NCBI GenBank assembly: GCA_029856155.1
Contig: JAHQWL010000033.1
Span: 1 to 48,365, forward strand
Origin: Promethearchaeia archaeon
GTDB lineage: Archaea > Asgardarchaeota > Lokiarchaeia > Sigyniarchaeales > SOKP01
DNA length: 48,365 nucleotides
Direction of reading: 5' to 3'
A program made the translations under genes and the position numbers. The notes beneath the pieces were generated by a model. The model did no database searches. It saw only the letters and a list, made by a program, of their open reading frames with translations, and had not been told where the DNA came from. This document shows positions 811 through 43,937 of the stretch, piece by piece (within the stretch, counting starts at the first letter, position 1; every line of letters starts with the position of its first letter).

Positions 811-3800
811 TTAATTACTTAATGGTATAATTAATTTTTGTTTGAGTAATGATTCAATTGCTTCGATAATTAAATCCTTATTTTCTTCGCTAACTAATTC
901 GACTATATTATTTAGATCAGCAATTTTATTATCTTCTGACATTGATTGAATAACATTTATTACTCGCATTTCCATCTTAGTTAATTTTCTTTCTTTTTTC
1001 ATAGTAATGAGGTTGATATCCTCCGATAATATAAATGAATCCTTGTAATATAGCTCAAAATATTCATTCAATATTTCTGGAACTAATATTTGAAAATCAT
1101 CTAAAGATCCATCCCAATCTTCTAATTTATTAGAAAGTTTTAGATTTAATGCTAAAATGAGATGAGAAATTTGACTTTTCAATCTTTCAGAGGAACGTTC
1201 TTTCAAAATAAAAACAGTTCGAATTTCTTCAATATCGGCAATTAAACAATAGAATTGCTTAAAATCTAATTCAATCATTTTTTCAATACCATACCCTTTA
1301 TCAAGTTCAGTAGATTCTAGCTCATTAATCTCTTTATCAATAAATTCTTCACCAATTGTAGTAATTGCTTGAATAAATCCTGAAAAAAGTTCTTTTTTAT
1401 GTTTCTCAAGAATTGAATAACTTTTCGAGTAAATTGGGATCCCACTTAACTTATGAACTACTACAATAGCTTGAATATTTTTGAGATCTTTAAATCTTTG
1501 AGTTTTCGAGAGTAACTCAGCTTCTTTTCTACGTCTTCTTGGTAAGAATACATAGGATCTTAAACTTAAAGCTCCGAGAGCACTAGCAACAATTAATAAT
1601 ACACCTATGATAATCCATAGTAAATAATTAGGGAGTCCTGATCCATTCACAGTAGGTTCTGCAATAACAACGATAAAAGAATATTGTAGAGTCTTATATA
1701 TTGAATTTTCAGGAGTAATTATAAGATTAAATTTAAAATTACCTTGTAAATTGTCGGGCAAATCAATAAGGACTTGATATAATTCAGATGTTGTTTCATT
1801 TAATGTACCTATTCCATATTCCCATGAATAACTTATATAAGCATGTTCTATAGAAATATTTGTTTTTGGGTCCAATAATTGTATCTGAATATTAATAGTT
1901 TCTCCGATTTCTGTTTCAATTGAATCCTCAAAACCAATAGGATTCAAGCGAAGTCCGATTTGAGTGATTAGTATTTGAAATGAAAAAACCGTCGTTGAGT
2001 AATTCTCCTTTTGAAATCTCAAATAAACATAATTAACTCCTAATGAAAAAATAGTAGGTGAACAAGAAATTGAAGTGTTATACCAATAATTTGCATAACC
2101 AGTACAGTTTTTTTCGTAATCACTGGCAACAAAAGTCATTAAACCATCTGCTAAATAAACCATTTCTGAGGTTGCCAAACTTTGGGCTGAAATTGAAAAA
2201 TCATCATTAAAGTCTAATTCTAATAGATAATTTTCAGTTACCTTCTCTGAATCTATCAGTACAGTCAAATTTATTTTTTGAGCACTAATTAAAAATTGAA
2301 ACGAAAATATATCAGTAGTATAATTTTCTAATTCAAATTTTAAATAAACGTAATTAATACCCGGATTAAAATATGAACCAGAAATCTCAATTGAAGTATT
2401 ATACCATAAAACTGTTGTTTCTTTTAACTCCTTATTAAAATTATCCTTAATAAATGTAACATTTGCTCCTGATAAATAGACTTTTTCACCGTTAGCATAT
2501 ACTCTAGCAGAAATATTTACCTCTTCCTTGAAAGTTAATTCTTTAATAGAATACTCAGCAATCTCTTTACCATTAACTAATGTTGATATATTAACAGTTT
2601 GCGCACTGATTAACAACTGAAATCCAAAGTTCTTTATCTGATAATTCTCTTGTTCAAATCTGATATATACAAAATTTAATCCTGCAGTAAAATTTGTACT
2701 AGTTATCGGAATTGTATCATTAAACCAAGCATTTCCCCCTTCGATAATAATCTTGTAATAATAATTAGAATTCCAAGTAATATTTCCACCTGTAAGATAT
2801 TTGCTATCAGTCTGACCGAAAATTCTAACAGATACATCGATATCTTCTTTGAACATAACTTCAATTAAAGAGTTTTCTTGGATTTTTTGAGAATTAATAT
2901 AAACTGAGATATTGACATTTTGTTCACTAATGAGTACCTGGAATCCAAAATTCGTAATTTGATAATTTTCTTGCTCAAACTTGATATATACAAAATTTAA
3001 TCCTGCAGTAAAATTTGTACTAGTTATCGGAATTGTATCATTAAACCAAGCATTTCCCCCTTCGATAATATTTTTGCGATAATAATTAGAATTCCAAGTA
3101 ACATTCCCACCTGTGAGATAAGAATTATCAATATTACCAAAGATCCTTATGGAGATATTTACATCTTCTTTAAAGACAGCCTCAATTAGTGAGTTCTCTT
3201 GGATCTTTTGAGAATTAATATAAACAGAGATATTTACAGATTGTTCAATTATCTCAAATTGAAAGATTGCGTTCTGAATTTCAAAAGCTAGAGCCGAGAA
3301 ATTCAATTTTATTTGATATGTTCCCAAATCATTAATATATGAAGTATCAAATTCGATTGTATAATTTCCATCAAAATGGTCGATTATATTATAATATTTA
3401 GTGTCAATGTTTACATTTACTTTCGCTCCTAAAATACCATCCCCTATAGAATCTGTATAGCTATACTTAATCGTACCGTTATCATTTAATTCAATATAAT
3501 ATTCTGAATCTAAACGTAATAAGTTAGTTTCTTCTAATAATATGATTTTTAATGTCATATTATAGGTTTTAAATCCAATCTTAGAACAACTAATTAATAT
3601 CTCATAAAAACCATTTTGTCCTAATTGAGAAGAATTCAAAATTGTATCATAGATTCCTAAAGATACTTCTTCAAACCTTATTAATTCAGTCGATAAATTG
3701 TAAGTAATAAGCGCATTGGAGATTTGTTTATTATTTTCAAAATCCATTAATTGAATCCTTAATGGAATAAGATCGCCAAAAAATGCTTCTGTAATTAAAT

Positions 3801-25229: not shown

Positions 25230-26123
25230 TTATTTAATTAGGCCTCTCATTTCAATTCCTACATTTTCTAAGGCAAATTTCAATCGAATTCTGTGAAACA
25301 TAAGTCCAATTTCACTCGCATCAAGATCCATTGCTAATGCTAATAATTCAGTTAAATACATCACTGGTATATTATAGTCTTCTTCAAACATTTTTGAGAG
25401 ATTTCTCTGTTGTGTATCAAATTGCTGAAAACATGAAGGACAATTTACGCAGATTACATCTGCCCCAGATTTTCTAATACTATCCATTTTCTTTTTTAAA
25501 GTTGCCAATCCATATTCCTCATAAGCATTTGTTACTGCAGAACCACAACATAAAGCTTCTTCATCGTGATCTACAACAGTTGCTCCTAAAGCAGAAACGA
25601 TTTCTTTTAAATTAGTTGGGTGTAATGGGTCATCAGATTCCATCCATTCAGCAGGTCTCATATAATGACAACCAGGGTGACATGCAACTTTTAGATTCTT
25701 TAAATCTTTCACTACTGAAGATTTTATTTTATCTAAATTATTTTTCAAAACATCAACAAAGTGTTTAACATCGATAGATCCCCTGTATTCTTTACCTATT
25801 TTAGCTAATTCTGCATTAATTTTTTCTTTTTTTAGCGAATCGTGCATTAATTGATGTTTCACTCCTCTTAATGTATTAGCACACCCATTACATAATGAAA
25901 TGATATCCTTACCTTCTGCTTCAGCTAAACAAAGGTTTCTTGCACCCATTGCTAACCAAGTATCGTTATCAAAGCATTTAACACCTGTTGGATCTGGACA
26001 ACAAGAAAATGGTGCTTGAGATGTTTCAATTCCTAACTTTTCAAAAACCTTTCTTGAAGCCGCTTCTACAAAAGGAATTCGATTTCCTATAACGCAACCT
26101 TCAAACATTTTATATTCTGTCAT
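25230..26123 (-). CDS. hdrB: Heterodisulfide reductase subunit B (copy 1)
   Basis: Two CCG domains: GC..SCCP..LCNGC and HPGCH..LCCG..NCPSC. Confidence 0.93.
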   Translation of the reverse strand: MTEYKMFEGCVIGNRIPFVEAASRKVFEKLGIETSQAPFSCCPDPTGVKCFDNDTWLAMGARNLCLAEAEGKDIISLCNGCANTLRGVKHQLMHDSLKKEKINAELAKIGKEYRGSIDVKHFVDVLKNNLDKIKSSVVKDLKNLKVACHPGCHYMRPAEWMESDDPLHPTNLKEIVSALGATVVDHDEEALCCGSAVTNAYEEYGLATLKKKMDSIRKSGADVICVNCPSCFQQFDTQQRNLSKMFEEDYNIPVMYLTELLALAMDLDASEIGLMFHRIRLKFALENVGIEMRGLIK

Positions 26124-26138
26124 TTTTTTACCCTCGAA

Positions 26139-26648
26139 TTATTTTAGTTTTTTTGTTATCCCTATATTTTTCAATAATGTTTGTACCTCATTTATATCTG
26201 GTGTTACTATAGATGGTAAACCTAATTGTTCTCTTCGCCTCTCAATTGCAGGTTGTGAAGGAATTGCTTTTGCGTTTTCGAAAACTGTCTTTGCTTGAGA
26301 ATAAAGGTAATCTGGTCCCTTCCCTAAAGCAATGCTTTGGTTTTTTAGAAAAGTAAAAATTTCTGTGAGCTCAATATTCTGAGGACATACTTCATCACAA
26401 GTATCACAAACAGTACAACCCCAAATTGTTAGGTCATCAGCTTCAAGTAGTAAATCTTTATACCCTAAAAGAGCCAGTAAGATATTTTTTCTAGGATTAT
26501 AACCCTTATCTGGGTCATAAAAATCCATAGATACTTCAGTTACCGGACAATTATCAGCACATCTACTACATTGATAACAGTATTTAATTACATCAGGCCC
26601 AATATGATAATCCATTATTTGTTTTCTAAATTCAAAATTTGTTTCCAT
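26139..26648 (-). CDS. hdrC: Heterodisulfide reductase subunit C (copy 1)
   Basis: CYQCSRCADNCP and WGCTVCDTCDEVCPQ 2x[4Fe-4S] motifs; RREQLGLP. Confidence 0.92.
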   Translation of the reverse strand: METNFEFRKQIMDYHIGPDVIKYCYQCSRCADNCPVTEVSMDFYDPDKGYNPRKNILLALLGYKDLLLEADDLTIWGCTVCDTCDEVCPQNIELTEIFTFLKNQSIALGKGPDYLYSQAKTVFENAKAIPSQPAIERRREQLGLPSIVTPDINEVQTLLKNIGITKKLK

Positions 26649-26694
26649 TTTTTTTCCACTTTTTTCCTAATTTTTTGAATGAATTTTTTTATAA

Positions 26695-26768
26695 TAGGCT
26701 TTAACCCCACGCAAGGGGCAGTCATATCCAATTTCTATTATTTTTATTGAACATTCATCCTAAGCCTA
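26695..26768 (-). promoter_or_regulatory. Eukaryote-type SECIS element of vhuU
   Basis: Minus strand reads AUGA-A-UGUUCAAU-AAAAAUAAUAGAA-AUUGGAUA-U-GA-C: AUGA/GA core, about 9-bp helix, A-rich apical loop. The lower helix is UAGGCUU/AAGCCUA. The core lies about 80 nt 3' of the in-frame UGA. Confidence 0.8.
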
Positions 26769-26904
26769 CGTTTAAATTTCGAGAGTAAATCTCAGTGCCC
26801 TCTTCATCAACAACTGTGATGTGAGCTGCACACGATAGTCAACAGTCAAAGCAGCGAACTATCATCTCTAAGAGATTTACCACGCCTTCTGGTACATCAC
26901 TCAT
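26755..26904 (-). CDS. vhuU: Selenocysteine-containing hydrogenase subunit VhuU (49 aa; absent from the ORF track)
   Basis: MSDVPEGVVNLLEMIVRCFDC-U-LSCAAHITVVDEEGTEIYSRNLNVGLG*. The TGA at 26841-26839 falls on the first ligand of the C-terminal DxCxxCxxH motif that the upstream large subunit lacks. Confidence 0.93.
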
Positions 26905-26946
26905 CTTTTTTGTTCACTTTTTTATTTAATTCTCAATATATTTAAT

Positions 26947-28254
26947 TTATTTAATCCATGGGTCTGGTAATTTTAAACTGTCAAGTGCCTTGTCCTCGAA
27001 AACTTGTTTAGCTACATGCATAAGTGTCTTTTCGATCCCTGCAATATTATGGTTTGTTGCCACTAAGAGATTTGCTTTTTTACATATTCCATCAGCATCA
27101 GACCATATGTTATATAAGAGTAATCCTCGAGGAGCTTCAGTTATGCCAACACCATTTCCTTCTCTAGGTTGAACATCCAAAGTTTTACAATCTGGATTAA
27201 CAACATCATCATCTTGAAGAAGTGTTGCTATTACTTCAATAGATTCGACTAATTCAATTAATCGAGCCCAATGATAAGCAAATGTATGATGAATAACATT
27301 AGTACCGACTTTCGCTCTCATTGCCTGTAATGCTTCGTCAGCTAAGGGAGTAGCCATTTTATCAGCACAATTAATCATCGCCAATGTATTTGCTCGATAT
27401 ATCCCTTCAGGATATCCGGCAGGTTTATAATACATGTGAGTTGCATATGAGTGCTCTGGAATATGTTCACCTAAAACGTCTAGATATTTTTGAGGTGGAT
27501 AATCGAATTTTTGCCCATCAGGAGAAACAATACGAATATTTCCATCATAAATATCGTGAACACCATTTTTAGTCATCCCAACATAGTAAGTAGGAACTAC
27601 TCCTACATTAGCTACTACATCCCAATAATCTTCGACTACTTTTAAGCCAATTTCAACAGTCTTTTTTGACCATTCTACTTGATCTTCAATTTGTTTTAAG
27701 AATAAATCTCGGACATCTTCATCTAAAGGCTTTTTCATACCTCCTACAATTGCTGATATTGGATGTACTGATTTACCACCAACAGCCTGGCATAGTTTTT
27801 GACCAAAATCCATCATTTTTAATGCCATCTTACCCACATCTGGCATTTGATTAATTATATGCACTACGTTCCTTAACGCAGGGTCTGCAAAAGGTCCTAA
27901 TAAGAAATCAGGCGCGGCGAGTGCATAGAAATGCAACGCATGTGATGAATATTGCTTTGCATTTTGCAGCAATTGACGTAATTTATATGCAGCAGGAGGA
28001 ATTTGTACGCCCCATGCATCTTCTACCGCTTTTGTAGGCGTTAAATGATGAGGAATTGGACATATACCACAAATTCTAGGAGTAATCCTTGGAATATGCT
28101 CACAATAACGTCCTTCAAGAAATTTTTCAAAAAATCTTGTTGAGGTAATGTTAAATTGAACATCTTGTACTTTTCCATCATCACCTAGAACTACTCTCAA
28201 ACCACCATGCCCTTCTAATCGAGTTACAGGTTCTACAACTATTTCTTTTACCAT
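26947..28254 (-). CDS. vhuA: Group 3c (F420-non-reducing) [NiFe(Se)] hydrogenase large subunit, C-terminally split
   Basis: TRLEGHG, RFFEKFLEGR, RICGICPIPH, EAPRG, NLLVATNHN; ends LPDPWIK with no DPCxxC motif. Confidence 0.93.
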   Translation of the reverse strand: MVKEIVVEPVTRLEGHGGLRVVLGDDGKVQDVQFNITSTRFFEKFLEGRYCEHIPRITPRICGICPIPHHLTPTKAVEDAWGVQIPPAAYKLRQLLQNAKQYSSHALHFYALAAPDFLLGPFADPALRNVVHIINQMPDVGKMALKMMDFGQKLCQAVGGKSVHPISAIVGGMKKPLDEDVRDLFLKQIEDQVEWSKKTVEIGLKVVEDYWDVVANVGVVPTYYVGMTKNGVHDIYDGNIRIVSPDGQKFDYPPQKYLDVLGEHIPEHSYATHMYYKPAGYPEGIYRANTLAMINCADKMATPLADEALQAMRAKVGTNVIHHTFAYHWARLIELVESIEVIATLLQDDDVVNPDCKTLDVQPREGNGVGITEAPRGLLLYNIWSDADGICKKANLLVATNHNIAGIEKTLMHVAKQVFEDKALDSLKLPDPWIK

Positions 28255-28257
28255 TTT

Positions 28258-29580
28258 TTATTCGCCTCCTTTAAAATTTCTATTTGCTGCTAGTGTAAAT
28301 TTCTCAAAAGTACCGATGTGGTCTTTTACTTGACTAAGCAATTCGTCTTTTGATAGACTCACATTAAATCCTTTAAGTACAGTATCTGCAAATCTCTCCG
28401 CTTGATTAACTCCCCATTCAGTTTGGCCAAAACAGCCAGTACAGGGTGAATTAACCTTTATACACATTCCACCGCAACCAGCTTTAGTAATAGGGCCTGC
28501 ACATATGTAGCCTTGTTCAATAAAACAATCCTCCATATTAGGAAGACCCTCGTAATCTCTTTTTACTCTAGTCATTGTTGATTTACTTCCGATAATTCTT
28601 GGACAGGTATCACAAACAGTTGAAATTTCAGTGAAATCACGATTATCTCTTAAGAATCCCATTAACTTTCCTGCTATTTCTTCTGTTGTAGGAGGAAGAT
28701 TCGCTAGAGGTGTTTCAGGAGAACCACGTTTCTTTATTTGTTTTAAAATATCTCCTGCTAGATCAAATCCCGCCATGAGAGGAATATTTAAAAATAATGG
28801 TAAAAATTCATAGAGACTCTTTTTATCACCCGAACTGAGAGCACCAAGATTATTTGCCATATTATTTAATTTGTCGGCTCTGGAATCAACAGTCTTAGCA
28901 GGTCCAAAGCAGCCAACACAAGGTTTGCCGTCACTAGTACATTTTAAACTACAACCGATACTAGTGATTGGACCAAAGCATAGTGTGCCTTTATCCAATA
29001 AACAATTATCTTTGATACTACAATCATTACAAAATGCTATATCATTCATCGGAAATGGTTTTTGACCTAATAAGAAGACAATTGCGCTTGCAATCGCTTC
29101 TGGTTTTGGAGGACAACCAGACATATACGCATCAACTTTAATAATATCATCAACAGGTACTATTTTATCTGCAAACCCTGGTGTATTCACCATTGGTTCT
29201 CCACCACTACCATCAGCTATACTTTCAACTTCAGAAAACTTGCGTTTTACTAGGTTATCTTTACTCCATTGGTTAGCTAATCCATGCACGTTACCATAAC
29301 ATGAGCAGCTACCAAAAGCCACGATTAAAGCACACTTTTGACGTAGTAATTTAGTTTGTGCTAAATCATGTTTAGTACGTAAACTTCCCTCAACGAATCC
29401 TACAAGAATTTCTCCGTCTTCTCTCGCTTTCAATGAATCATATTTGAAATCTACTACAGCCGGCCAATAGACAATCTCTAATGCTGGGAGAATATTAAGT
29501 AAACCTAAATGCAAATTAAGTAGACTTTGATGACAACCCCAGCAATCAGAATTTTGTAAGAATGCTACTTTTACAGCCAT
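28258..29580 (-). CDS. vhuG: Hydrogenase small subunit (MvhG/VhuG) with duplicated C-terminal Fe-S module
   Basis: DCWGCH, VEGS, AFGSCSCYG, SGCPP; two C..C...C...C.GPIT..GC...C...PC.GCFG modules. ATG 29580 is preferred over GTG 29589 because GGTGA then forms the SD. Confidence 0.9.
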   Translation of the reverse strand: MAVKVAFLQNSDCWGCHQSLLNLHLGLLNILPALEIVYWPAVVDFKYDSLKAREDGEILVGFVEGSLRTKHDLAQTKLLRQKCALIVAFGSCSCYGNVHGLANQWSKDNLVKRKFSEVESIADGSGGEPMVNTPGFADKIVPVDDIIKVDAYMSGCPPKPEAIASAIVFLLGQKPFPMNDIAFCNDCSIKDNCLLDKGTLCFGPITSIGCSLKCTSDGKPCVGCFGPAKTVDSRADKLNNMANNLGALSSGDKKSLYEFLPLFLNIPLMAGFDLAGDILKQIKKRGSPETPLANLPPTTEEIAGKLMGFLRDNRDFTEISTVCDTCPRIIGSKSTMTRVKRDYEGLPNMEDCFIEQGYICAGPITKAGCGGMCIKVNSPCTGCFGQTEWGVNQAERFADTVLKGFNVSLSKDELLSQVKDHIGTFEKFTLAANRNFKGGE

Positions 29581-29722
29581 ATTTTTCACCTAAAAATATA
29601 ATCATATTTCTTTATTTTTCTCATATTTTTTTTTAAAAAAATGAATTTTTAATTATATTCAGAAAATTACTTAATTATTTAATTCTTATTGATTATCTAA
29701 TATAAGTTTTATAAATAACTGA

Positions 29723-31973: not shown

Positions 31974-34040
31974 TTAAATCTTTTCAATTTTTGCTGCGCA
32001 TACTTTATATTCTGGGATTTTCGCTATGGGATCGACAGCATTTATCGTAAGAACATTAGCTGGAGCTTCTTCAAAGTGGAATGGAATAAATATTAAACCT
32101 TTTTTAACCCGATCTGTTACTTTCGTTTTAATTGTAATTTCTCCACGGCGAGTCTTAACTTTAACTTTCTGTCCATCTACGATATTCATATCAACCGCAT
32201 CTTGAGGAGAAACTTCAACATATCCTTCAGGAACTCTTGCATTTAAAGTTGCGGATCTTCTACTCATTGTTCCCGTATGATAATGCCAGAGCATCCTTCC
32301 CGTCGACAAGATTAGAGGATAATCATTATCAGGTAATTCTGCTGGTTCTTTAAATGAGATTGCATGAAAATGCCCTTTGCCTCTCGAGAATTTGCCGTCT
32401 TTATGTAAATAAATAGTTCCAGGGTGATTTTCATCAGGACAAGGCCATTGAAAACCTTCATCTGTAGCATTTAACCTTTCCCATGTAATTCCACAATATA
32501 TAGGGGTCACTCTATTTATTTCTGAAAGAATTTCTTTTGGATGGGAATATGATAGTCCATCATAACCCATAGCTTTCGCAATTAAGCCAATAATTTCCCA
32601 ATCATGTTTAGAATTTCCTACAGGAGGAATTACTTGTCTTATCAATTGAATTCTTCTTTCAGTACTGGTGAAAGTTCCATCGGTTTCAGCAAAAGAAGCA
32701 GCAGGTAAGACTACATCAGCTAATTCTGTTGTAGGGGTTGGAAAAATATCTTGCACAACGAGGAATACCTTTTTTAAGCCTTTTCTTACATGATTAATGT
32801 CGGGATCGCTCATCATGGGATTTTCTCCCATTACGTACAATCCTTTTAAATTACCATCACAGGCTTCATTTATCATCTCAGTAACGGTGAGACCAACTTT
32901 ATCATCCATTTCATTTACATCAATCCCCCATTCTTTTGCCATCTTTTCACGTTTATCAGCTTCAACAACCTTTTGATAACCAGAAAATACATTCGATAAT
33001 GCTCCAAGATCACACGCACCTTGAACATTTTGTTGTCCCCGTAAAGGATTGACACCCGTACCCCATTTTCCCATATTTCCGCATAACATTTGAAGATTTG
33101 CAGTGCTTTTAACATTGTCTACACCTGTAGTGTGCTGTGTTATTCCCATCGAATATATCAAGGATACTGCTTTTCCGTTTCCAATAATTCTTGCTGCATC
33201 AATAATCTTTTCTTTTTTAACACCAGTTATTTCAGCTGCTTTCTCTGGAGTCATTTTCATGACTTCTTCTTTAAATTCTTCAAAATTCTCACAGTAATTG
33301 TCAATAAATTCTTTATCATAAAGATTTTCTTTTATAATAACATTCATCATGCCATTCATAAGTGCTACATCCGTTCCAGGTCTCTGGTTCATCTCAATAC
33401 CATCATGATCTGTTGCCAATTCAGATAAAGGAATGGTACGAGGATCTGCGACAATGATTTTTGCGCCTTTAGATAAAGCGGTTAATACTCTTTTTCCTAT
33501 GAGGGGATGTTGTTCATTAGTATTAGATCCAGTAATGAAAATAACATCAGCATCTGCAATTTCATCAATGGAATTAGTCATGGCACCAGATCCAAAAGCA
33601 GCAGCTAATCCAGCAACTGTGGAAGAGTGACATAGCCTTGCACAGTGATCTATATTATTAGTTTTGAATACGGTTCTAGCAAATTTTTGCATAACATAAT
33701 TTTCTTCATTTGTGCATTTTGCAGAACTTAAAAATCCGAGTACCCTCTTATTTCCGGGATTTTCCTCCATTATCTTTTTAAAGTTCTCAGCAATGTAGCT
33801 TATCGCCTCATCCCAACTTACTTCTACTAACGTTCCATTTTTTCTGATCATGGGTTCAATAAGCCTATCCGGATGATGGATGAATTCATGGACATTCCAC
33901 CCTTTGATACACAATTTTCCTAGTCCCGGATTAAATCCATCTCGGACTGGTTTGGTATCAACAATTTTTCCATCCTGAACTTTTAAATATATTTGGCAAC
34001 CTGTACCACAATACACACAAGTCGTTTTTACTTTCTCCAC
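31974..34040 (-). CDS. fdhA: Mo/W-bisPGD formate dehydrogenase alpha subunit, Cys form
   Basis: TCVYCGTGC...LCIKG [4Fe-4S], HCARLCHSST, LRGQQNVQG, IPEYKVCA; GTG start with GGAGG SD. Confidence 0.95.
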   Translation of the reverse strand: MEKVKTTCVYCGTGCQIYLKVQDGKIVDTKPVRDGFNPGLGKLCIKGWNVHEFIHHPDRLIEPMIRKNGTLVEVSWDEAISYIAENFKKIMEENPGNKRVLGFLSSAKCTNEENYVMQKFARTVFKTNNIDHCARLCHSSTVAGLAAAFGSGAMTNSIDEIADADVIFITGSNTNEQHPLIGKRVLTALSKGAKIIVADPRTIPLSELATDHDGIEMNQRPGTDVALMNGMMNVIIKENLYDKEFIDNYCENFEEFKEEVMKMTPEKAAEITGVKKEKIIDAARIIGNGKAVSLIYSMGITQHTTGVDNVKSTANLQMLCGNMGKWGTGVNPLRGQQNVQGACDLGALSNVFSGYQKVVEADKREKMAKEWGIDVNEMDDKVGLTVTEMINEACDGNLKGLYVMGENPMMSDPDINHVRKGLKKVFLVVQDIFPTPTTELADVVLPAASFAETDGTFTSTERRIQLIRQVIPPVGNSKHDWEIIGLIAKAMGYDGLSYSHPKEILSEINRVTPIYCGITWERLNATDEGFQWPCPDENHPGTIYLHKDGKFSRGKGHFHAISFKEPAELPDNDYPLILSTGRMLWHYHTGTMSRRSATLNARVPEGYVEVSPQDAVDMNIVDGQKVKVKTRRGEITIKTKVTDRVKKGLIFIPFHFEEAPANVLTINAVDPIAKIPEYKVCAAKIEKI

Positions 34041-34041
34041 T

Positions 34042-34932
34042 TTACATTACCTCCCATACTTTTATTTCTGGTTTAATTCTATGTGTTTTATATCCAATTT
34101 CATCCAAACTCTTACCCATGGCTAATCCTATCAATTCAACCGCGTACATTACAGGAATTTTAGAATCTTTGAGTTCAGGATAATCCCTCGATGCCATAAT
34201 CTGTCCCATATCAAATTGTATAAAGCAAAAAGGACATCCAGTACTTAAAATGTGTGCTCCAGTATGATTTTTTATATCGAGTAGTTTATTTGCAATACAT
34301 TTATTATTAGCTTCTTTATCACCAACTAAATTTAATGCAACACCACAGCAATCCACCTTAGTTATATAATCGACTGCGGTGGCTCCCAACGCTGAAACAA
34401 ATTTATCGTATTCTTGTGGATCAGTGGGGTCATCATATTTAAGAATCTCATCTGGCATCAGTAAATGGCACCCAGGATGACTCGCAACTTTTAAACCATG
34501 TAAAGGCTTTTTAACTTTACTCTTTAAATTCTCATATCCTAGATCTTCCTTAATTACCTGCATTAGATGTTTAACCTTAACGGTACCTTTATACTCTTTA
34601 CCGATTTCCTTTAATACATTATTTACAGCAGCTTTTAATTCTGCACTCTTTTGTAATTTTGCGTTAGTTATTGCTAAGGTATTTAAACAACCGTTACAAA
34701 GCGTCATAATGTCCATTCCTTTCTCTTCAGCAATTGCTAAATTTCTTGCAGCAACAGCTAACCAGAAATAATGATTTGCCCCTTCAAGCTGAACTGGATC
34801 TGGACAACAAGAAAACTGTTCTTCTTCCTGCAGCTCGATCCCTATTTCAGGAAGAATATCTAAAGCAAGTTTTTCCACATTTGGTAACTTAGCTGGTATA
34901 GTACACCCTTTAAAAAATAGATATTTAGGCAT
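34042..34932 (-). CDS. hdrB: Heterodisulfide reductase subunit B (copy 2)
   Basis: GC..SCCP..LCNGC and HPGCH..DCCG..GCPFC. Confidence 0.93.
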   Translation of the reverse strand: MPKYLFFKGCTIPAKLPNVEKLALDILPEIGIELQEEEQFSCCPDPVQLEGANHYFWLAVAARNLAIAEEKGMDIMTLCNGCLNTLAITNAKLQKSAELKAAVNNVLKEIGKEYKGTVKVKHLMQVIKEDLGYENLKSKVKKPLHGLKVASHPGCHLLMPDEILKYDDPTDPQEYDKFVSALGATAVDYITKVDCCGVALNLVGDKEANNKCIANKLLDIKNHTGAHILSTGCPFCFIQFDMGQIMASRDYPELKDSKIPVMYAVELIGLAMGKSLDEIGYKTHRIKPEIKVWEVM

Positions 34933-34935
34933 AAT

Positions 34936-35418
34936 TTAAGCAACCTCCGTTTTAAAAGCAGTTCTTTCTGCAATTATTCTTAATTCTTTAATTACATTCT
35001 CATTTGCAGATAATTCTTTTAAGCCTATTTTTTTCCTGTCAGCATTAACTTTAGCACCAGTTTCATACGCAATGCCCGTATTTAAGACTTGTTTTGCTAA
35101 AGCATAAACAGAACTTGGAGCTAAACCTCTCTGATAAGATAACTGTTTCAAGTTCGTAAATACTTCAGCGGGTTCCGCATCTTGAGGGCATACCATGATG
35201 CATTTTTCACAATTACTACACATCCACACATCTTTCAATGTTGTAGATTCTTCTGCTCCATAGAGCTGTGAAATGAAAGCATCTTCAATATTATATCTAC
35301 TGACATTCATAGTGACGGGACAAAATAAAGCACAGGCCGAACATTTAAAACAGACAGCAACTTCAGGGTTTTTTTCTATTATTTCATCCTTATCGTATTT
35401 TATTCTAATTACTTCCAT
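34936..35418 (-). CDS. hdrC: Heterodisulfide reductase subunit C (copy 2)
   Basis: CFKCSACALFCP and WMCSNCEKCIMVCPQ. Confidence 0.9.
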   Translation of the reverse strand: MEVIRIKYDKDEIIEKNPEVAVCFKCSACALFCPVTMNVSRYNIEDAFISQLYGAEESTTLKDVWMCSNCEKCIMVCPQDAEPAEVFTNLKQLSYQRGLAPSSVYALAKQVLNTGIAYETGAKVNADRKKIGLKELSANENVIKELRIIAERTAFKTEVA

Positions 35419-35603
35419 AAAATTTCTACACTTCTTTAATGTGATTTTTTGTTAAAATATTTAATATGTATTCTAATAAGTAATCCAATTTAAGCTATTA
35501 GATTAGACCATTCAGTTAGACAAGTTTATAGGATACTGATAACTTCTAAATTTGAACCAAAAATTTTTTACTGCTAGAATTTTCTATCCTTTCTCTTCAT
35601 GAG

Positions 35604-35646
35604 AGTTCGGATTTCGAACTATTGAATAATTATCGGTTCGATAATT
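35604..35646. promoter_or_regulatory. Adjacent palindromes AGTTCG-N5-CGAACT and AATTATCG-GTT-CGATAATT in the fdh/FNT divergent promoter
   Basis: At 35604-35620 and 35628-35646; they also overlap TGAATAATTAT, a partial copy of the hydrogenase-operon motif. Confidence 0.55.
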
Positions 35647-35769
35647 TTGAATTTTCTAAGAGCCGTTATCAAAATTCTGGTAAAAAAATTTAAAAATAAA
35701 CCATAATTCCTTTTTGCATTCTTTAATAAAAGAATAATTAAAAAAAAAAAAATAAAAAGAGGATAAATT

Positions 35770-36882
35770 ATGTCTTGTATAGATCCTACAATTAATGCTA
35801 TTTCGAATGCGGGATCTGGTAAAACCAAACAATCATTTGCAGTTAACTTACTTACGGGTTGGAATGCAGGAGCGTTCATTGCTATAGGTGCCACACTAGC
35901 AACTATTTCGGCCATAAAAGTAAGTGCGGCTTGGAGTAATTTTATCTTTGCGGCAGTGTTCCCCATTGGTCTTATCGGTATTATCTTTATGGGAGGAGCC
36001 GATCTCTTTACTGGAGATTGCATGATTACCCCTTTAGCATGTTACACGCGAAAGTCAAAAATGAATGAAGTATTTAGAAATTGGTTTTTAGCTCTTGGAG
36101 GAAATCTGATAGGATCCATTTGTTGGGCTTGGATTGTTGCCTTTTCTTTAATATATGGAGGGAGTATAACGGCAGGTGCTGCTACTAAAGCGATCGCTGT
36201 GGCAAATGGAAAAGTTGCATTAGTGGGGCAAGATTTCATTGGTGGATTTTCCGTGATGGTATTTAAAGGTATAATCTGTAATTTATTGGTTAATTTTGCG
36301 ATATATCAAGCCACTAAATCTAATGAAAATCTAATGGCAAAAGTGTTCAACATATGGTTTCCTATAATGGCATTCGTCATGGTTGGATCCGAGCACCTTA
36401 TAGCGAATATGTTCTTCATACCTGTTGGAATCTTCTCAGGAGCTCCGATAACGTGGACTCAGACCTTCATTTCCAATTTTCTACCAGTCTTATTAGGAAA
36501 CATGATTGGGGGATATGTATTCATGGGATTGAATTATTGGTTTACAACTGGAAGCCATGATGTCAACGATCCCGAAGGAACCGTACATTCTGATGCAAAA
36601 CGTATAGGGAGAGCTATTAAAATGTTAGTTCCCTTAATAATCGGTTTTGTAATTTTAGCTTTAGCCTATATCATTGTACCCGCAGGAATCTCCATGATTA
36701 TGGAAATAGGTATTACACCAACTGATGGCTATGCACGTATAGACTTAATGCAACCTGCAAATCTAATGCTAGGTAATGTGATGACAACTGTCATAATTCC
36801 GGTTGTAATTATTGTATATACGATTCTAATAAGTATAGTATTAAGAATAGTGTTCAGAAAAGCCGTAAAACTTAGAAAATAG
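35770..36882 (+). CDS. fdhC: Formate/nitrite transporter (FNT, FocA/FdhC family) with C-terminal extension
   Basis: FPIGLI, GADLFTG, GNLIG, KGIICNLLV, EHLIANM, LGNMIGG; divergent from the fdhA operon. Confidence 0.9.
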   Translation: MSCIDPTINAISNAGSGKTKQSFAVNLLTGWNAGAFIAIGATLATISAIKVSAAWSNFIFAAVFPIGLIGIIFMGGADLFTGDCMITPLACYTRKSKMNEVFRNWFLALGGNLIGSICWAWIVAFSLIYGGSITAGAATKAIAVANGKVALVGQDFIGGFSVMVFKGIICNLLVNFAIYQATKSNENLMAKVFNIWFPIMAFVMVGSEHLIANMFFIPVGIFSGAPITWTQTFISNFLPVLLGNMIGGYVFMGLNYWFTTGSHDVNDPEGTVHSDAKRIGRAIKMLVPLIIGFVILALAYIIVPAGISMIMEIGITPTDGYARIDLMQPANLMLGNVMTTVIIPVVIIVYTILISIVLRIVFRKAVKLRK

Positions 36883-38770: not shown

Positions 38771-39823
38771 ATGAGTATGAAGAAAGTGAGTTCGAGTGTT
38801 ATTCGATTAGCACATGGAGCTGGAGGGGTATTACAAGAAGAACTGATTAATTTCATTACGCGTAACATTACTTATAAGAAGATAGGTAAAGGAATCGGAG
38901 TAGAAGAATTGGATGATGGTGCTACCATTCCTTTAGAAGATTATGATCAAGAAATTGTAGTTACTGCTGATGGGCATACTATTTATCCTCTATTTTTTCC
39001 CGGAGGAGACTTAGGAACATTAAGTGTTTGTGGAACTGTTAATGATCTGATAATGATGGGTGCTGAACCCTTAGCTTTGACATCGATGGTAATCATAGAA
39101 GAAGGATTCAAATTTAGTCAATTGGAAAGAATAGTTAATTCAATGAATTTAATGGCAAAAGAGGCTAATATTGCGATAATTGCGGGGGATACTAAAGTAA
39201 TGCCGAGGGGAACATTAAATGAGTTAATTATTGCGACAACTGGCATTGGAATTAAGGATAAAAACATAAAAGTTTTAGACAACAACATTAGAACTGGAGA
39301 TCATATCATCCTAACTGGAAGTATTGGAGATCATGGGACAGCATTAATCGCTTCACGAGAAGGATTGAATATATCTACTGATTTGAAATCAGATGTCTCA
39401 CTACTACTCGAAATCTATAATGTATTGAAGTCTGATATTAGTAATAATTATATCCATGCAATGAAGGATCCCACACGCGGAGGAATAGCTGCTGCTTTGA
39501 ATAATTGGGCAGTAAAATCAAATATTAGTATTTGGATTGATGAAGAAAAAATCCCGATTAAAAAACAAGTTGAAGCAATATGCGATATGTTAGGTTTAGA
39601 TCCTTACAACATTGCAAGTGAAGGAAGAGCTCTCTTGGCAGTAGATCCAAATCATTCTGAAAGTATCTTAGAGAAAATAAAGGCAACCCAGATTGGCAAA
39701 GAAGCGGAAATAATTGGTGAAGTAAGAGCTGAAAATCCTAAACGAGTGTTCTTAAAAACAATTGTTGGTGGTACTCGATTTGTAGATATGCCACTAGGAG
39801 AACCAATCCCCAGAATTTGTTAA
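38771..39823 (+). CDS. hypE: Hydrogenase maturation carbamoyl dehydratase HypE
   Basis: LAHGAGG, FPGGDLG, GTVNDL, GDTKV, KDPTRGG, C-terminal PRIC. Confidence 0.96.
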   Translation: MSMKKVSSSVIRLAHGAGGVLQEELINFITRNITYKKIGKGIGVEELDDGATIPLEDYDQEIVVTADGHTIYPLFFPGGDLGTLSVCGTVNDLIMMGAEPLALTSMVIIEEGFKFSQLERIVNSMNLMAKEANIAIIAGDTKVMPRGTLNELIIATTGIGIKDKNIKVLDNNIRTGDHIILTGSIGDHGTALIASREGLNISTDLKSDVSLLLEIYNVLKSDISNNYIHAMKDPTRGGIAAALNNWAVKSNISIWIDEEKIPIKKQVEAICDMLGLDPYNIASEGRALLAVDPNHSESILEKIKATQIGKEAEIIGEVRAENPKRVFLKTIVGGTRFVDMPLGEPIPRIC

Positions 39824-39834
39824 TAGGTGAAAAT

Positions 39835-40929
39835 ATGGATATTCCCGGTTTGGATGTTTTAAGAAACAAAGAATTTACCAATAAAATTATTAAGTCAATT
39901 ATTAAAACTTTTAAAGAAATAGGTAAACCAGTTAAATTGATGCATGTTTGTGGAACTCATGAACATACAATTTCTAAATATGGATTAAGAACTCTATTAC
40001 CTAAAGAAATTGAAATATTATCGGGTCCAGGATGCCCAGTATGTGTATGTCCTGCTGCTGATATTGATAAAGCGATTGAGCTTGGAAAACGAAATGATAC
40101 GATAATAACAACTTTTGGAGATATGATCAGAGTTCCTGCTACAAATATCTCTCTTGCTGAACTTAAAGCAAGAGGTTCTGATGTACGTATTATATATGGG
40201 CCAAATGATGCTGTTAAAATAGCTAAGGAAAATCCAGATAAAGAGGTGATATTTTTTGCAATAGGATTTGAAACAACAGTCCCATTAATAGGATACGAAT
40301 TACAATCTGGGCCGCCTTCAAATTTTTCAGTAATATGTGCTCATAAGTTAATACCGGCGGCTTTAGAACTTTTAATGAGTCAATCTCAATTAAAAATTGA
40401 TGGTTTTATTTCCCCTGGGCACGTATCAACCATAATAGGTTTAAAACCATATGAAATATTTTCTCAGGGCTATCACATTCCTAATGTCATTACGGGATTT
40501 GAGCCAAATGATGTATTACTCTCAATCCTAATGCTTTTGAAGCAGGTGAGAGATAAAAAATATGATACTTTAAATGAATACTCTAGAGTTGTGAAACCCG
40601 AAGGGAATATAATCGCTCAAAAGATAATAGAAGATGTGTTTGAACCTGTCTCATCTCCATGGAGAGGTATCGGGAGAGTTAATGATGGTGGATTGATTAT
40701 TAGAGAGGAATACAGCCAATTTGACGCTGACCAAAAGTATAATATAAAAATCTCAAAATCTCAAGATATTCCTCCTGGCTGTTCTTGTCATCTTGTTATG
40801 GTTGGAAAATTATATCCTTATGAGTGTAAATTGTTTAGGAAAGAATGCACTCCAATTAATCCGATTGGACCATGTATGGTTTCAATGGAAGGAACTTGTA
40901 GTATTTATTACAAATTTCATGAAAGATAA
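39835..40929 (+). CDS. hypD: Hydrogenase maturation protein HypD
   Basis: VCGTH, GPGCPVCV, GFETT, PGHVS, GPCMVSMEGTC; ATG 39835 follows an AGGTGA SD. Confidence 0.96.
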   Translation: MDIPGLDVLRNKEFTNKIIKSIIKTFKEIGKPVKLMHVCGTHEHTISKYGLRTLLPKEIEILSGPGCPVCVCPAADIDKAIELGKRNDTIITTFGDMIRVPATNISLAELKARGSDVRIIYGPNDAVKIAKENPDKEVIFFAIGFETTVPLIGYELQSGPPSNFSVICAHKLIPAALELLMSQSQLKIDGFISPGHVSTIIGLKPYEIFSQGYHIPNVITGFEPNDVLLSILMLLKQVRDKKYDTLNEYSRVVKPEGNIIAQKIIEDVFEPVSSPWRGIGRVNDGGLIIREEYSQFDADQKYNIKISKSQDIPPGCSCHLVMVGKLYPYECKLFRKECTPINPIGPCMVSMEGTCSIYYKFHER

Positions 40930-41017
40930 TAATAGTCTTGTAGAAGAATGTCAAAAACAACAAAACTATATTTTAAATTAGAGATGAAAAATCTTAAACT
41001 GAACATGGAAAACATGA

Positions 41018-41426
41018 TTAATATTTGTCAGTTCCCCACGAATCTATAGCAGGAAAATTACATCGATATCCTTTTCTATAATTTTTATTAAAATATGTTT
41101 TTACATACATTCCTCATATTTTTTTATCGAGATCTACCCGAGTTAGTCCTTGGGATTTAGAATTTGAAGAAAAATTTTCAGTGTTATAATCGAGACTACA
41201 TTTCCAAAAATAAGGTTTTTTTTTAAGGTATAAAGATCTATCTTCTACATACTCTTGCATCCAAGGTACAAGATAAATATCATCTTTCCCTTCAAAATAA
41301 TTAATCAGATATTTTAGTCCAGATTCAAAAATTCCTTCACTTGCTGCCCAATATCCCCCCAATAACTTACGAGCACAATTAAAATACACCCTTTTAAATC
41401 TCTTACTGTTGGCTATTTATAGTCAT
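41018..41426 (-). pseudogene. Probable disrupted hypothetical gene including ORF 41114-41389
   Basis: The frame stays open for about 30 codons beyond TGA 41116-41114 (GMYVKTYFNKNYRKGYRCNFPAIDSWGTDKY*). The nearest upstream ATG (41426) is out of frame by one base. Confidence 0.4.
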
Positions 41427-41540
41427 TTCTAAAACAAAAGCATAATTTAATAATATTTAACATAATAAAATATTAGTTTTTTTAGTGATTATTTAATTAA
41501 TTAAATTTGAAAAAGAAATAGAAAACTTGAAGGCAATTAT

Positions 41541-43937
41541 TTGAAAAGTTTTAAAACTATAGAAATTAGGATTACTGGAATTGTTCAAGGAGTAGGTTTT
41601 AGGCCATTTTTATATAATCTAGCACATAATCTAAATCTTAAAGGCTATATATTAAATCAAGGAAATGCTGGAGTAAGATTGATTTTACAAGGGAATTCTC
41701 AAAATATTAAAAAATTTTTAAAAAATATTGATATAGAGAAACCAAAAATTTCTTTCATTGAAGAGATTAAGACTAATTATTTAGATTTTCAAAAAGAATT
41801 TAATAAATTAGAGATAAGGAAAAGTGAAAAAGGACGCGGAGTTAGTCTAACTCTTCCACCAGATATAGCAATCTGTAATGAATGCCTAAAAGATATGAAT
41901 GATCCTCAAAAAAGGAAATATTATCAATATCCTTTTACCGCATGTGCCGTATGTGGTCCTAGATATACTACTGTAACTGAATTACCTTATGATAGAGAAA
42001 GAAGTACAATGATTAAATTTCCTTTCTGCAAGAAAGCTGACCCTGAATCCTGTATTCAAGAATATTCAGATTTTAAGAATCGAAGGTTTCATGCTCAAAC
42101 ATTTGCGTGCTCAGTTTGTGGACCTAATTATACATTATATAACAAACAAGGAGAAATAGTTAATGATGAGTCTTTAGATTCAATTTTAAAAGAAACAGCC
42201 AAGATGATTAATGAAGGAGAAATAATTGCTGTAAAAGGTATTGGAGGTACTCATCTCGTTTGTTTAGCAAATGATAACACCATCCTAAAACTTCGTGAAA
42301 GAAAAGGAGAAAGAAAATATAAGCCTTTTGCTATAATGATTCCTAATTTAAAAATGATTGAAAATGATATAATAATTTCAACTAAGGAAAAGGAATTAAT
42401 AACTTCGTTTCGAAGGCCTATAGTTCTTTTAGAAAGAAAAGAATTAATTGATAAATCATTAATTAGTGAAAAAGTAGCTCCTGGGTTAAATAATGTAGGA
42501 ATATTACTTCCATATTCGGGTATCCATCATTTGCTATTCCAATATATTGGTGAAAAACCTTTAATATATACAAGTGGGAATAAATCCTATATGCCTATGT
42601 CTATTGATAATAAAGACATATTCAGCCAACTTAAAGATTTAGCAGAATTATTTCTTCTTCATAATAGACCAATTTATCAAAGAGCTGATGATAGTGTTTT
42701 AAGAATTCATAACAATAAAGTGAAATTAATTAGAAGATCGAGAGGATATGTTCCAGAATATTTACCATTACCATTTGAAGTAGAAATACCTAGTGCTTTA
42801 GCTATGGGCCCCGAATTATCAGTCACAGGAGCAGTTTTAAGGAGAAATCGAATATTTCCTACTCAACATATCGGAAATGTTACTCATTTAGAAACGTACA
42901 ATTTTCTTAAGGATGCTCTTTTTCATATGAAAAATCTTTTGCAAGTGAAAGATTCTGAATTAAAATTTATTGTTTGTGATGCCCATCCAGCTTTTATAAC
43001 AACAAAATTAGGGAATGAAATAGCGAATCAATTTAATATTCCTCTATATTCAGTGCAACATCACTACGCTCATATTTTAGGTCTTATGGCAGAGAATAAA
43101 ATCGGACCGGATGAAAAAATAATGGGTATAAGTACTGATGGTGTTGGTTATGGAGATGATGGTAATATTTGGGGTGGAGAAATTTTGCTAAGTTCTTATA
43201 ATGATTATGAGCGGCTTGGTTTTTTAGAATATCAACCAATGATTGGAGGAGATCGTTGTACAAAATATCCTGCTCGGATGGTTGCTTCTATTATCCTTAA
43301 TACTTTAGGTATAGATGATTCTGTAAAAATTTTCAAACATATTGGTTTAGAAAATGATTTAGAATATAAAGAGAATGAATTGAAAACATTAATTTCTCAA
43401 TTTAGCAATGCAAATCAAAATTTTCCATCCGAGAATATACCTTTATCCAGTTCAACTGGTAGAATATTTGATGCCGTTTCTTATCTTTTAGGAGCCGCAA
43501 ATATTAAAACATATAGAGGAGAACCTGCTATGAGACTTGAAGGTTTAGCCTCAAAAGGCAATCCTAATAATATAGATTTAGAAATCAAATATTCTAGAAA
43601 AAATGGAATACGTGTAATAGATACTTCAAAGATAATAACTGATATTTTAAAATTATCAGAAAAACCGACTTCGATAAAAGAAGATATAGCTGCTGCTTTT
43701 CAAGTTGAATTTGGAAAGTCTTTTGCTAATGTAGCTATTGAATGCGCTAGAGAATATAATATAGAGAAGATAGGATTATCTGGAGGTGTTGCTTACAATT
43801 ACTCATTTTCGAAAGCTTTAAAGGATGAAATTATTAAAAATGGTTTCATTTTTTTAGAAAATAATCACATTGCTCCAGGAGATGCAGGAATTAGCACGGG
43901 GCAGTTAGTTGGAGGAATTTTCAAACATGGATTTTAA
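41541..43937 (+). CDS. hypF: Hydrogenase maturation carbamoyltransferase HypF
   Basis: GIVQGVGFRPF acylphosphatase domain, CNEC/CAVCGPRY zinc fingers, RRFHAQ, KGIGG, QHHYAH, DGVGYG, GDAGISTGQ. Confidence 0.96.
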   Translation: MKSFKTIEIRITGIVQGVGFRPFLYNLAHNLNLKGYILNQGNAGVRLILQGNSQNIKKFLKNIDIEKPKISFIEEIKTNYLDFQKEFNKLEIRKSEKGRGVSLTLPPDIAICNECLKDMNDPQKRKYYQYPFTACAVCGPRYTTVTELPYDRERSTMIKFPFCKKADPESCIQEYSDFKNRRFHAQTFACSVCGPNYTLYNKQGEIVNDESLDSILKETAKMINEGEIIAVKGIGGTHLVCLANDNTILKLRERKGERKYKPFAIMIPNLKMIENDIIISTKEKELITSFRRPIVLLERKELIDKSLISEKVAPGLNNVGILLPYSGIHHLLFQYIGEKPLIYTSGNKSYMPMSIDNKDIFSQLKDLAELFLLHNRPIYQRADDSVLRIHNNKVKLIRRSRGYVPEYLPLPFEVEIPSALAMGPELSVTGAVLRRNRIFPTQHIGNVTHLETYNFLKDALFHMKNLLQVKDSELKFIVCDAHPAFITTKLGNEIANQFNIPLYSVQHHYAHILGLMAENKIGPDEKIMGISTDGVGYGDDGNIWGGEILLSSYNDYERLGFLEYQPMIGGDRCTKYPARMVASIILNTLGIDDSVKIFKHIGLENDLEYKENELKTLISQFSNANQNFPSENIPLSSSTGRIFDAVSYLLGAANIKTYRGEPAMRLEGLASKGNPNNIDLEIKYSRKNGIRVIDTSKIITDILKLSEKPTSIKEDIAAAFQVEFGKSFANVAIECAREYNIEKIGLSGGVAYNYSFSKALKDEIIKNGFIFLENNHIAPGDAGISTGQLVGGIFKHGF

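Follow-up and report, generated by a model that had tools for sequence, protein, structure and literature searches.

The roles of the metal ligands, the insertion of the metal centre by Hyp proteins and the maturation by an endopeptidase are established for the [NiFe(Se)] hydrogenases. In group 3c, the unsplit MvhA (PDB 5odc_F, 9sw2_F and 7t2r_D) is one polypeptide with Cys at the first C-terminal ligand position, whereas the methanococcal large subunit is split into VhuA and the small VhuU (NF041786; PDB 9sfi chain M), which carries Sec at this position in a D-P-U motif and in which a His and a tail come after the motif. In the solved structure, the methanococcal VhuU chain has 27 listed residues, the last of them one past the His. 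The VhuU of M. voltae is reportedly cut after the His, and its gene lies in the order vhuD-G-A-U-B. The SECIS of the methanococcal genes is of the GAA_A type, with a GC-rich stem of 10 bp and an asymmetric GAA/A bulge that separates two GC-rich stems in the 3' UTR.

In Asgard archaea, vhuU and its recoding signal are already known, first from Lokiarchaeota (Mariotti et al., 2016; PMC4989117) and then from Asgard archaea at large (Huang, 2024; PMC11227280). According to the former, VhuU is among the five selenoprotein families of Lokiarchaeota, the AUGA of the SECIS of VhuU.1 doubles as its UGA stop codon and no SBP2 homologue was found in Lokiarchaeota (PMC4989117). The latter gives FrhA/MvhA/VhuU selenoproteins in 68.3% of the Sec-using Asgard archaea and mentions lower-stem pairs that are specific to FrhA/MvhA/VhuU genes (PMC11227280).

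The window analyzed here is a contig of 48,365 nt (JAHQWL010000033.1) of the Promethearchaeia archaeon assembly GCA_029856155.1, and all positions without a contig name refer to it. An initial annotation, made from the raw sequence, had called a hidden vhuU in this window, and the call was correct. The vhuU of the window is a further ortholog of VhuU.1 of Lokiarchaeota, found in a related Asgard MAG, and its host is an Asgard archaeon, unlike the hosts of methanococcal Vhu. We consider it very probable that vhuU is a genuine selenoprotein gene that completes a two-piece large subunit of a group-3c-type hydrogenase. Annotation pipelines that stop at the TGA would call this hydrogenase truncated and miss vhuU, and the resulting annotation underestimates H2 metabolism in Asgard archaea, a key element of syntrophy models for eukaryogenesis. 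The window provides a clean and independently verified example of VhuU.

Like VhuU.1 of Lokiarchaeota, the VhuU of the window is a protein of about 50 residues with a single Sec, and its gene is located beside vhuA and vhuG (PMC4989117). With methanococcal VhuU it shares the position of the split, Sec at the first C-terminal ligand and the His and tail after the motif, but the motif reads D-C-U instead of D-P-U and is preceded by an invariant Cys three residues earlier, and the SECIS is eukaryote-like instead of being of the GAA_A type. VhuA and VhuU together cover the unsplit MvhA, with which their ligand motifs align, although two polypeptides and Sec take the place of one polypeptide with Cys.

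The split large subunit and the vhuU gene

The coding sequence of vhuU (26755-26904, minus strand) starts with ATG at 26904, contains 49 sense codons including that for Sec22 and ends with a TGA stop at 26757-26755. It was identified as an ORF, by its match to the NCBIfam VhuU model and by its presence in 99 loci. As annotated initially, this 49-codon ORF lies in a gap of about 300 bp: 298 nt separate the stop of vhuA (26947) from the start of the hdrC-like gene (26648), of which 42 nt lie between vhuA and vhuU and 106 nt between vhuU and the hdrC-like gene. The local gene order on the minus strand is vhuG-vhuA-vhuU-hdrC-hdrB, where vhuG (28258-29589) encodes the small subunit, vhuA (26947-28254) encodes the [NiFe] hydrogenase large subunit that lacks the C-terminal ligand motif, and profile searches revealed an hdrC-like gene directly downstream of the SECIS (26139-26648) and an hdrB-like gene with two CCG domains (25230-26123).

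The 435-aa VhuA matches positions 3-417 of the 418 positions of the NCBIfam VhuA model with 473 bits, and it matches the 418-aa split VhuA of PDB 9sfi_g, its most similar solved chain, over the full length with 424 bits, so that the split is located at the position of the methanococcal VhuA/VhuU split, as had been claimed. In the unsplit MvhA 5odc_F (473 aa), the match of VhuA is limited to residues 4-416, and the end of VhuA corresponds to about residue 417 of MvhA. The N-terminal ligand pair is kept in the motif R-I-C-G-I-C, while the C-terminal Ni/Fe ligand pair is missing from VhuA, as the initial annotation had noted.

This pair is supplied by the small ORF, which aligns with residues 424-455 of 5odc_F. 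Its in-frame TGA at codon 22 (26839-26841, minus strand) is found opposite the first Cys of the DPCxxCxxH motif in 5odc_F, 7t2r_D and 9sw2_F and opposite X (Sec) in 9sfi_M, a VhuU chain of 27 residues, in agreement with the earlier placement of the TGA at the first ligand position, where comparison with VhuU and MvhA C-termini had been proposed as a check. The match of such a small ORF to the part of MvhA that VhuA lacks is far beyond chance. With the TGA read as Sec, the conserved part of the protein ends with R-C-F-D-C-U-L-S-C-A-A-H, in which the ligand motif D20-C21-U22-L-S-C25-A-A-H28 (26821-26847, minus strand) has a Cys in place of the usual Pro; by homology, codon 22 would specify the terminal Ni ligand. 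Exactly 21 residues follow His28, which is the tail length given initially, and this C-terminal extension (26758-26820, minus strand) is presumably removed in maturation.

The NCBIfam VhuU model (NF041786) matches vhuU over positions 4-38 of 45 with an E value of 2.5e-13. The scores of vhuU (49.6 bits vs. a curated cut-off of 70) and VhuA (473 bits vs. 800) are below the cut-offs of their respective models, which appear to represent methanococcal sequences. Judging from its sequence, vhuU is a diverged VhuU ortholog that lies outside the clade of NF041786 and that displays all the structural features of VhuU and probably works like it. In support of a group 3c [NiFe] hydrogenase, both subunits are closest to MvhA/MvhG or VhuA/VhuG, and the N-terminal RxCGxC motif is present. 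No second copy of vhuA or vhuU was found in the genome, whose sole other [NiFe] large subunit, encoded on contig C22, is unsplit and 23% identical.

Conservation of the TGA and of the codons that follow it

By six-frame search, the vhuU ORF was detected in 34 of 40 related genomes (35 of 41 when the source genome is counted), and nearly every strong match contains exactly one in-frame TGA. With 80 further loci that were fetched via VhuA, the combined set consists of 99 vhuU loci with 79 distinct nucleotide sequences. All 79 have TGA as codon 22, and TGT or TGC is never found there. The six residues after the TGA, L-S-C-A-A-H, are invariant in all 79, while 4, 5, 2, 4, 4 and 2 different codons are used at the respective positions. 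Fixed amino acids with synonymous variation indicate that translation runs past the TGA, and the pattern is the hallmark of purifying selection on a protein whose translation includes the TGA.

The codon itself was also checked in Logan contigs of one RNA run and of three DNA runs, each of which belongs to a different study (runs X2, X5, X6 and X12 in all). TGT or TGC, sought at 26841-26839 as the initial annotation had suggested, was not encountered: the contigs, with a summed depth of up to about 780, list no variant at these positions, and neighbouring synonymous sites do vary among the contigs. One contig of 265 nt from a salt-marsh metatranscriptome covers 26602-26866 with 0 differences, from codon 13 of vhuU through the SECIS into the start of hdrC. 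This contig from an RNA library, which could stem from contaminating DNA, is a weak hint of co-transcription of vhuU and hdrC.

Variants of the locus were found among the relatives. In one of them (L026; G012:C49:18799-18945), vhuU is interrupted by a premature TAA six codons past the His, and the rest of the tail sequence and the SECIS remain intact downstream, which fits a dispensable tail. A split VhuU-like ORF without an in-frame stop that belongs to a different family within the order (L143; G027:C117, about 2998-3150, minus strand) encodes D-C-C-L-S-C-A-A-H, which indicates that Cys is tolerated at this site and that the split outlasts the replacement of Sec by Cys. In eight related loci (L082, L110, L113, L116, L122, L124, L133 and L134, at about 2800-3000 in each), vhuA ends with ...LPDPWIK and is followed within about 50-100 nt by hdrC, without vhuU. 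At least three genomes with such a locus (isolates DZ1B.199, AMARA_5S and Yap150.bin8.212) also have a vhuA-vhuU locus, and one VhuU may serve two VhuA paralogs in these genomes.

The SECIS element and the Sec machinery

A SECIS with a three-way junction fold was identified at 26694-26769 (minus strand) from folds, covariation and a covariance model. Its helix I pairs 26769-26762 with 26701-26694, and the 5' strand of this helix consists of the codons for V-G-L. The AUGA core (26758-26755), located 83 nt downstream of the Sec codon, is formed by the last base of the Gly49 codon and the UGA stop. It is followed by helix II, in which 9 bp (26754-26746 with 26732-26724) enclose a 13-nt A-rich loop that opens with five A's, by the GA dinucleotide (26723-26722) and by helix III, a GC hairpin (26719-26704).

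The features of a type I lokiSECIS, i.e., AUGA, a helix of about 9 bp, an A-rich loop ending with AG and GA or AA near the end of the coding sequence, are all found, and the AUGA provides the UGA stop as in lokiSECIS (PMC4989117). The dinucleotide after the stem is GA, unlike the AA of Lokiarchaeota VhuU, and close relatives have either GA or AA; the apical loop is 13 nt long, unlike the 11-nt loop of lokiSECIS, from an insertion of AA. Similar to eukaryotic SECIS elements with their kink-turn AUGA/GA core, AUGA and GA flank a helix, unpaired A's are found in the apical loop and the UGA on which the element acts lies some distance upstream. Unlike in eukaryotic SECIS elements, helix II is shorter, the element overlaps with the coding sequence and an extra hairpin is located on the 3' side of the internal loop. 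In more distant relatives with a TAA or TAG stop, the AUGA is found 25-35 nt further downstream.

Support for this structure comes from covariation and not from folding energy, as the single-sequence fold energy of the region is not unusually stable (z = -1.0). In an alignment of 66 distinct sequences fitted to the model, 96.9% of the cells pair and eight pairs are changed on both sides; the covariation score was reached by none of 500 shuffles, and the signal was lost when the pairing partners were slid. A genus-level set was analyzed likewise. A lower helix and, between it and helix II, a small GC hairpin are further parts of the minimum-energy fold of nearly every relative. Relatives at a greater distance share the arrangement but differ considerably in the sequences of their helices. 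Alignment by MAFFT with RNAalifold for 29 sequences of mixed distance recovered only three pairs because distant sequences were misaligned, and it was replaced by a structure written by hand for the genus-level alignment and by a covariance model. This covariance model (R1), which has the full three-helix layout, also matches the SECIS after a VhuD gene (C11:27842-27920) with 42.6 bits; it is too sequence-specific for the SECIS elements of a more distant family, whose structures were read from individual folds. An Rfam scan of 26000-27500 yielded only chance-level matches and no SECIS family. The methanococcal GAA_A bulge structure is absent from the folds of 26649-26770, where the sole GC hairpin has 5 bp and lacks GAA_A.

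The same SECIS architecture is present after other UGA-containing genes of the genome. A GC hairpin follows the GA or AA in all eight SECIS elements located there, i.e., those of vhuU, four VhuD genes, two other genes and SPS, a count of located elements and not a census, given that a strict pattern scan of the genome (at least two GC pairs) missed the SECIS of vhuU. These hairpins have 3-6 bp and loops similar to UUGC, GUGC or UGUGA, begin 2-6 nt past the GA or AA, and are found at 26704-26719 (minus strand) of the window, near C11:27860, C21:29540, C22:47480, C30:1060, C98:55040 and C103:54490, and on C63 downstream of SPS; 8.7% of random windows of the genome contain a hairpin of this kind. 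Wherever an element folds with a lower helix, as that of vhuU does, this helix encloses the GC hairpin, which results in a three-way junction. The main texts of both earlier studies contain no description of the GC hairpin or of its combination with a lower helix formed by coding sequence (PMC4989117; PMC11227280). It is conceivable that the Asgard SECIS forms a three-way junction, in contrast to the single stem-loop of the literature, and that the GC hairpin is recognized, for example, by a factor that replaces SBP2.

The host genome is a MAG of 4.1 Mb in 104 contigs with 30% GC and an estimated contamination of 5.7%. The contigs with Sec genes have 28-32% GC, like the window, and the nearest relatives of its VhuA (81-95% identity) are almost all from MAGs of Promethearchaeota/Promethearchaeia (Asgard, Lokiarchaeia lineage). 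The Sec machinery, for which the initial annotation had recommended a search, was located in this genome. The tRNA-Sec scores 62 bits, above the Rfam cut-off, and has the 9/4 acceptor/T fold of archaea and eukaryotes and a long D-stem; it is adjoined by the gene for SepSecS (386 bits). A PSTK-like gene is present, as is selD/SPS (C63:7561-8400), which has one in-frame TGA of its own. An EF-Tu-like gene 4 kb from the tRNA-Sec is the candidate for EFsec, on the basis of this position and of its score against the bacterial selB model (238.7 bits vs. a cut-off of 242, over the GTPase part only). SepSecS, tRNA-Sec and the EFsec candidate lie within 6.5 kb (C44:151825-158373).

TGA ends 190 of the 1519 ORFs of at least 300 aa in the genome. 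Genome-wide reassignment of TGA was thus rejected, as TGA is an ordinary stop elsewhere.

Other explanations of the TGA have to be weighed against its decoding as Sec. If it were a true stop, the ORF would be a decayed C-terminus of the large subunit and the hydrogenase would be inactive or would use other ligands. Standard translation indeed ends at codon 22, and vhuA directly precedes hdrC without vhuU in the eight related loci described above, but at least three genomes with such a locus also have a vhuU locus. The invariance of the amino acids past the TGA with synonymous variation in 79 sequences, the conserved SECIS with its covariation and the complete Sec machinery of the genome likewise argue against decay, and we regard a true stop as extremely improbable.

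Alternatively, the UGA could be read through without tRNA-Sec, e.g., by near-cognate insertion of Cys or Trp, either constitutively or only when selenium is scarce. The split Cys form in the same order suggests that Cys is chemically acceptable at this site; however, neither TGT nor TGC occurs at codon 22 in the 79 sequences of the clade, a dedicated SECIS lies downstream of the gene, tRNA-Sec, SepSecS, PSTK, SPS and EFsec are all present and TGA otherwise serves as a normal stop in this genome, all of which make such read-through highly unlikely. Nothing was found in favor of a sequencing or assembly error that turned TGT or TGC into TGA, and its probability is practically nil given that the same codon is found in 99 independently assembled loci and that runs from three studies, with a summed depth of up to about 780, list no variant at 26839-26841.

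Proposed assembly of the hydrogenase and associated features

We propose that the large subunit of a cytoplasmic group-3c-type hydrogenase is made in two pieces, in which VhuA would contribute the N-terminal Cys pair and the 49-residue VhuU precursor the C-terminal pair, with Sec22 as the predicted terminal Ni ligand and Cys25 as the predicted bridging ligand by homology. UGA22 would be translated as Sec by tRNA-Sec and an EFsec-type factor under the direction of the downstream eukaryote-like SECIS, and the second UGA would end translation, presumably because it is inside the SECIS, which fits the minimal-distance idea (PMC4989117). Hyp proteins, of which HypE, HypD and HypF are encoded in the window at 38771-43937, would insert the Ni-Fe centre. 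An endopeptidase of the HycI type, such as that encoded at C52:104285-104620, would then presumably cut off the 21 residues after His28, and the remaining 28-residue peptide would stay bound to VhuA and VhuG.

The order of the genes in the operon (vhuG-vhuA-vhuU-hdrC-hdrB) points to electron transfer to an HdrBC-type module. Probable electron acceptors of the enzyme are the HdrC/HdrB-like proteins encoded next to it and HdrA and VhuD, whose genes lie elsewhere; neither a VhuD gene nor an HdrA gene is found in the window. The genome has 15 matches to FlpD/MvhD, of which eleven are without an in-frame stop and four, the VhuD/MvhD paralogs at C21:29673-30041, C98:54542-54910, C30:571-936 and C11:27940-28305, contain two in-frame TGA codons each. 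Elsewhere in the window (31974-36882), hdrC, hdrB and fdhA are arranged in tandem on the minus strand, and a formate/nitrite transporter gene is divergent from this group. The FdhA is without an in-frame stop, and no FdhB-like gene was detected among the ORFs scanned.

Position 21 of VhuU, next to Sec22, is Cys in 76 of the 79 distinct sequences, Pro in two and Phe in one, and a further D-F-U form is found in the same order (L144 of genome G027). Cys18, three residues before Cys21, is invariant in the 79 sequences (codons 18-21, 26842-26853, minus strand). The D-C-U motif could form a selenenylsulfide with a protective or regulatory role at the active site. The proposals that the Asgard SECIS is a three-way junction with the GC hairpin as an obligatory recognition element and, separately, that the Cys-Sec pair forms a reversible selenenylsulfide are speculative, and we consider them rather doubtful. 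The SECIS hairpin and the Cys-Sec pair offer modest leads, and the side observations could guide work on the recognition of archaeal and eukaryote-like SECIS elements.

The VhuG of the window is 443 aa long, as compared with 288-308 aa for the solved VhuG and MvhG chains. An insert of about 146 aa (residues 178-323; 28621-29058, minus strand) lies between its two VhuG-matching parts. The insert resembles the C-terminal Fe-S module of the same protein, which it partly repeats (35% identity over 48 residues, E value of 2e-11).
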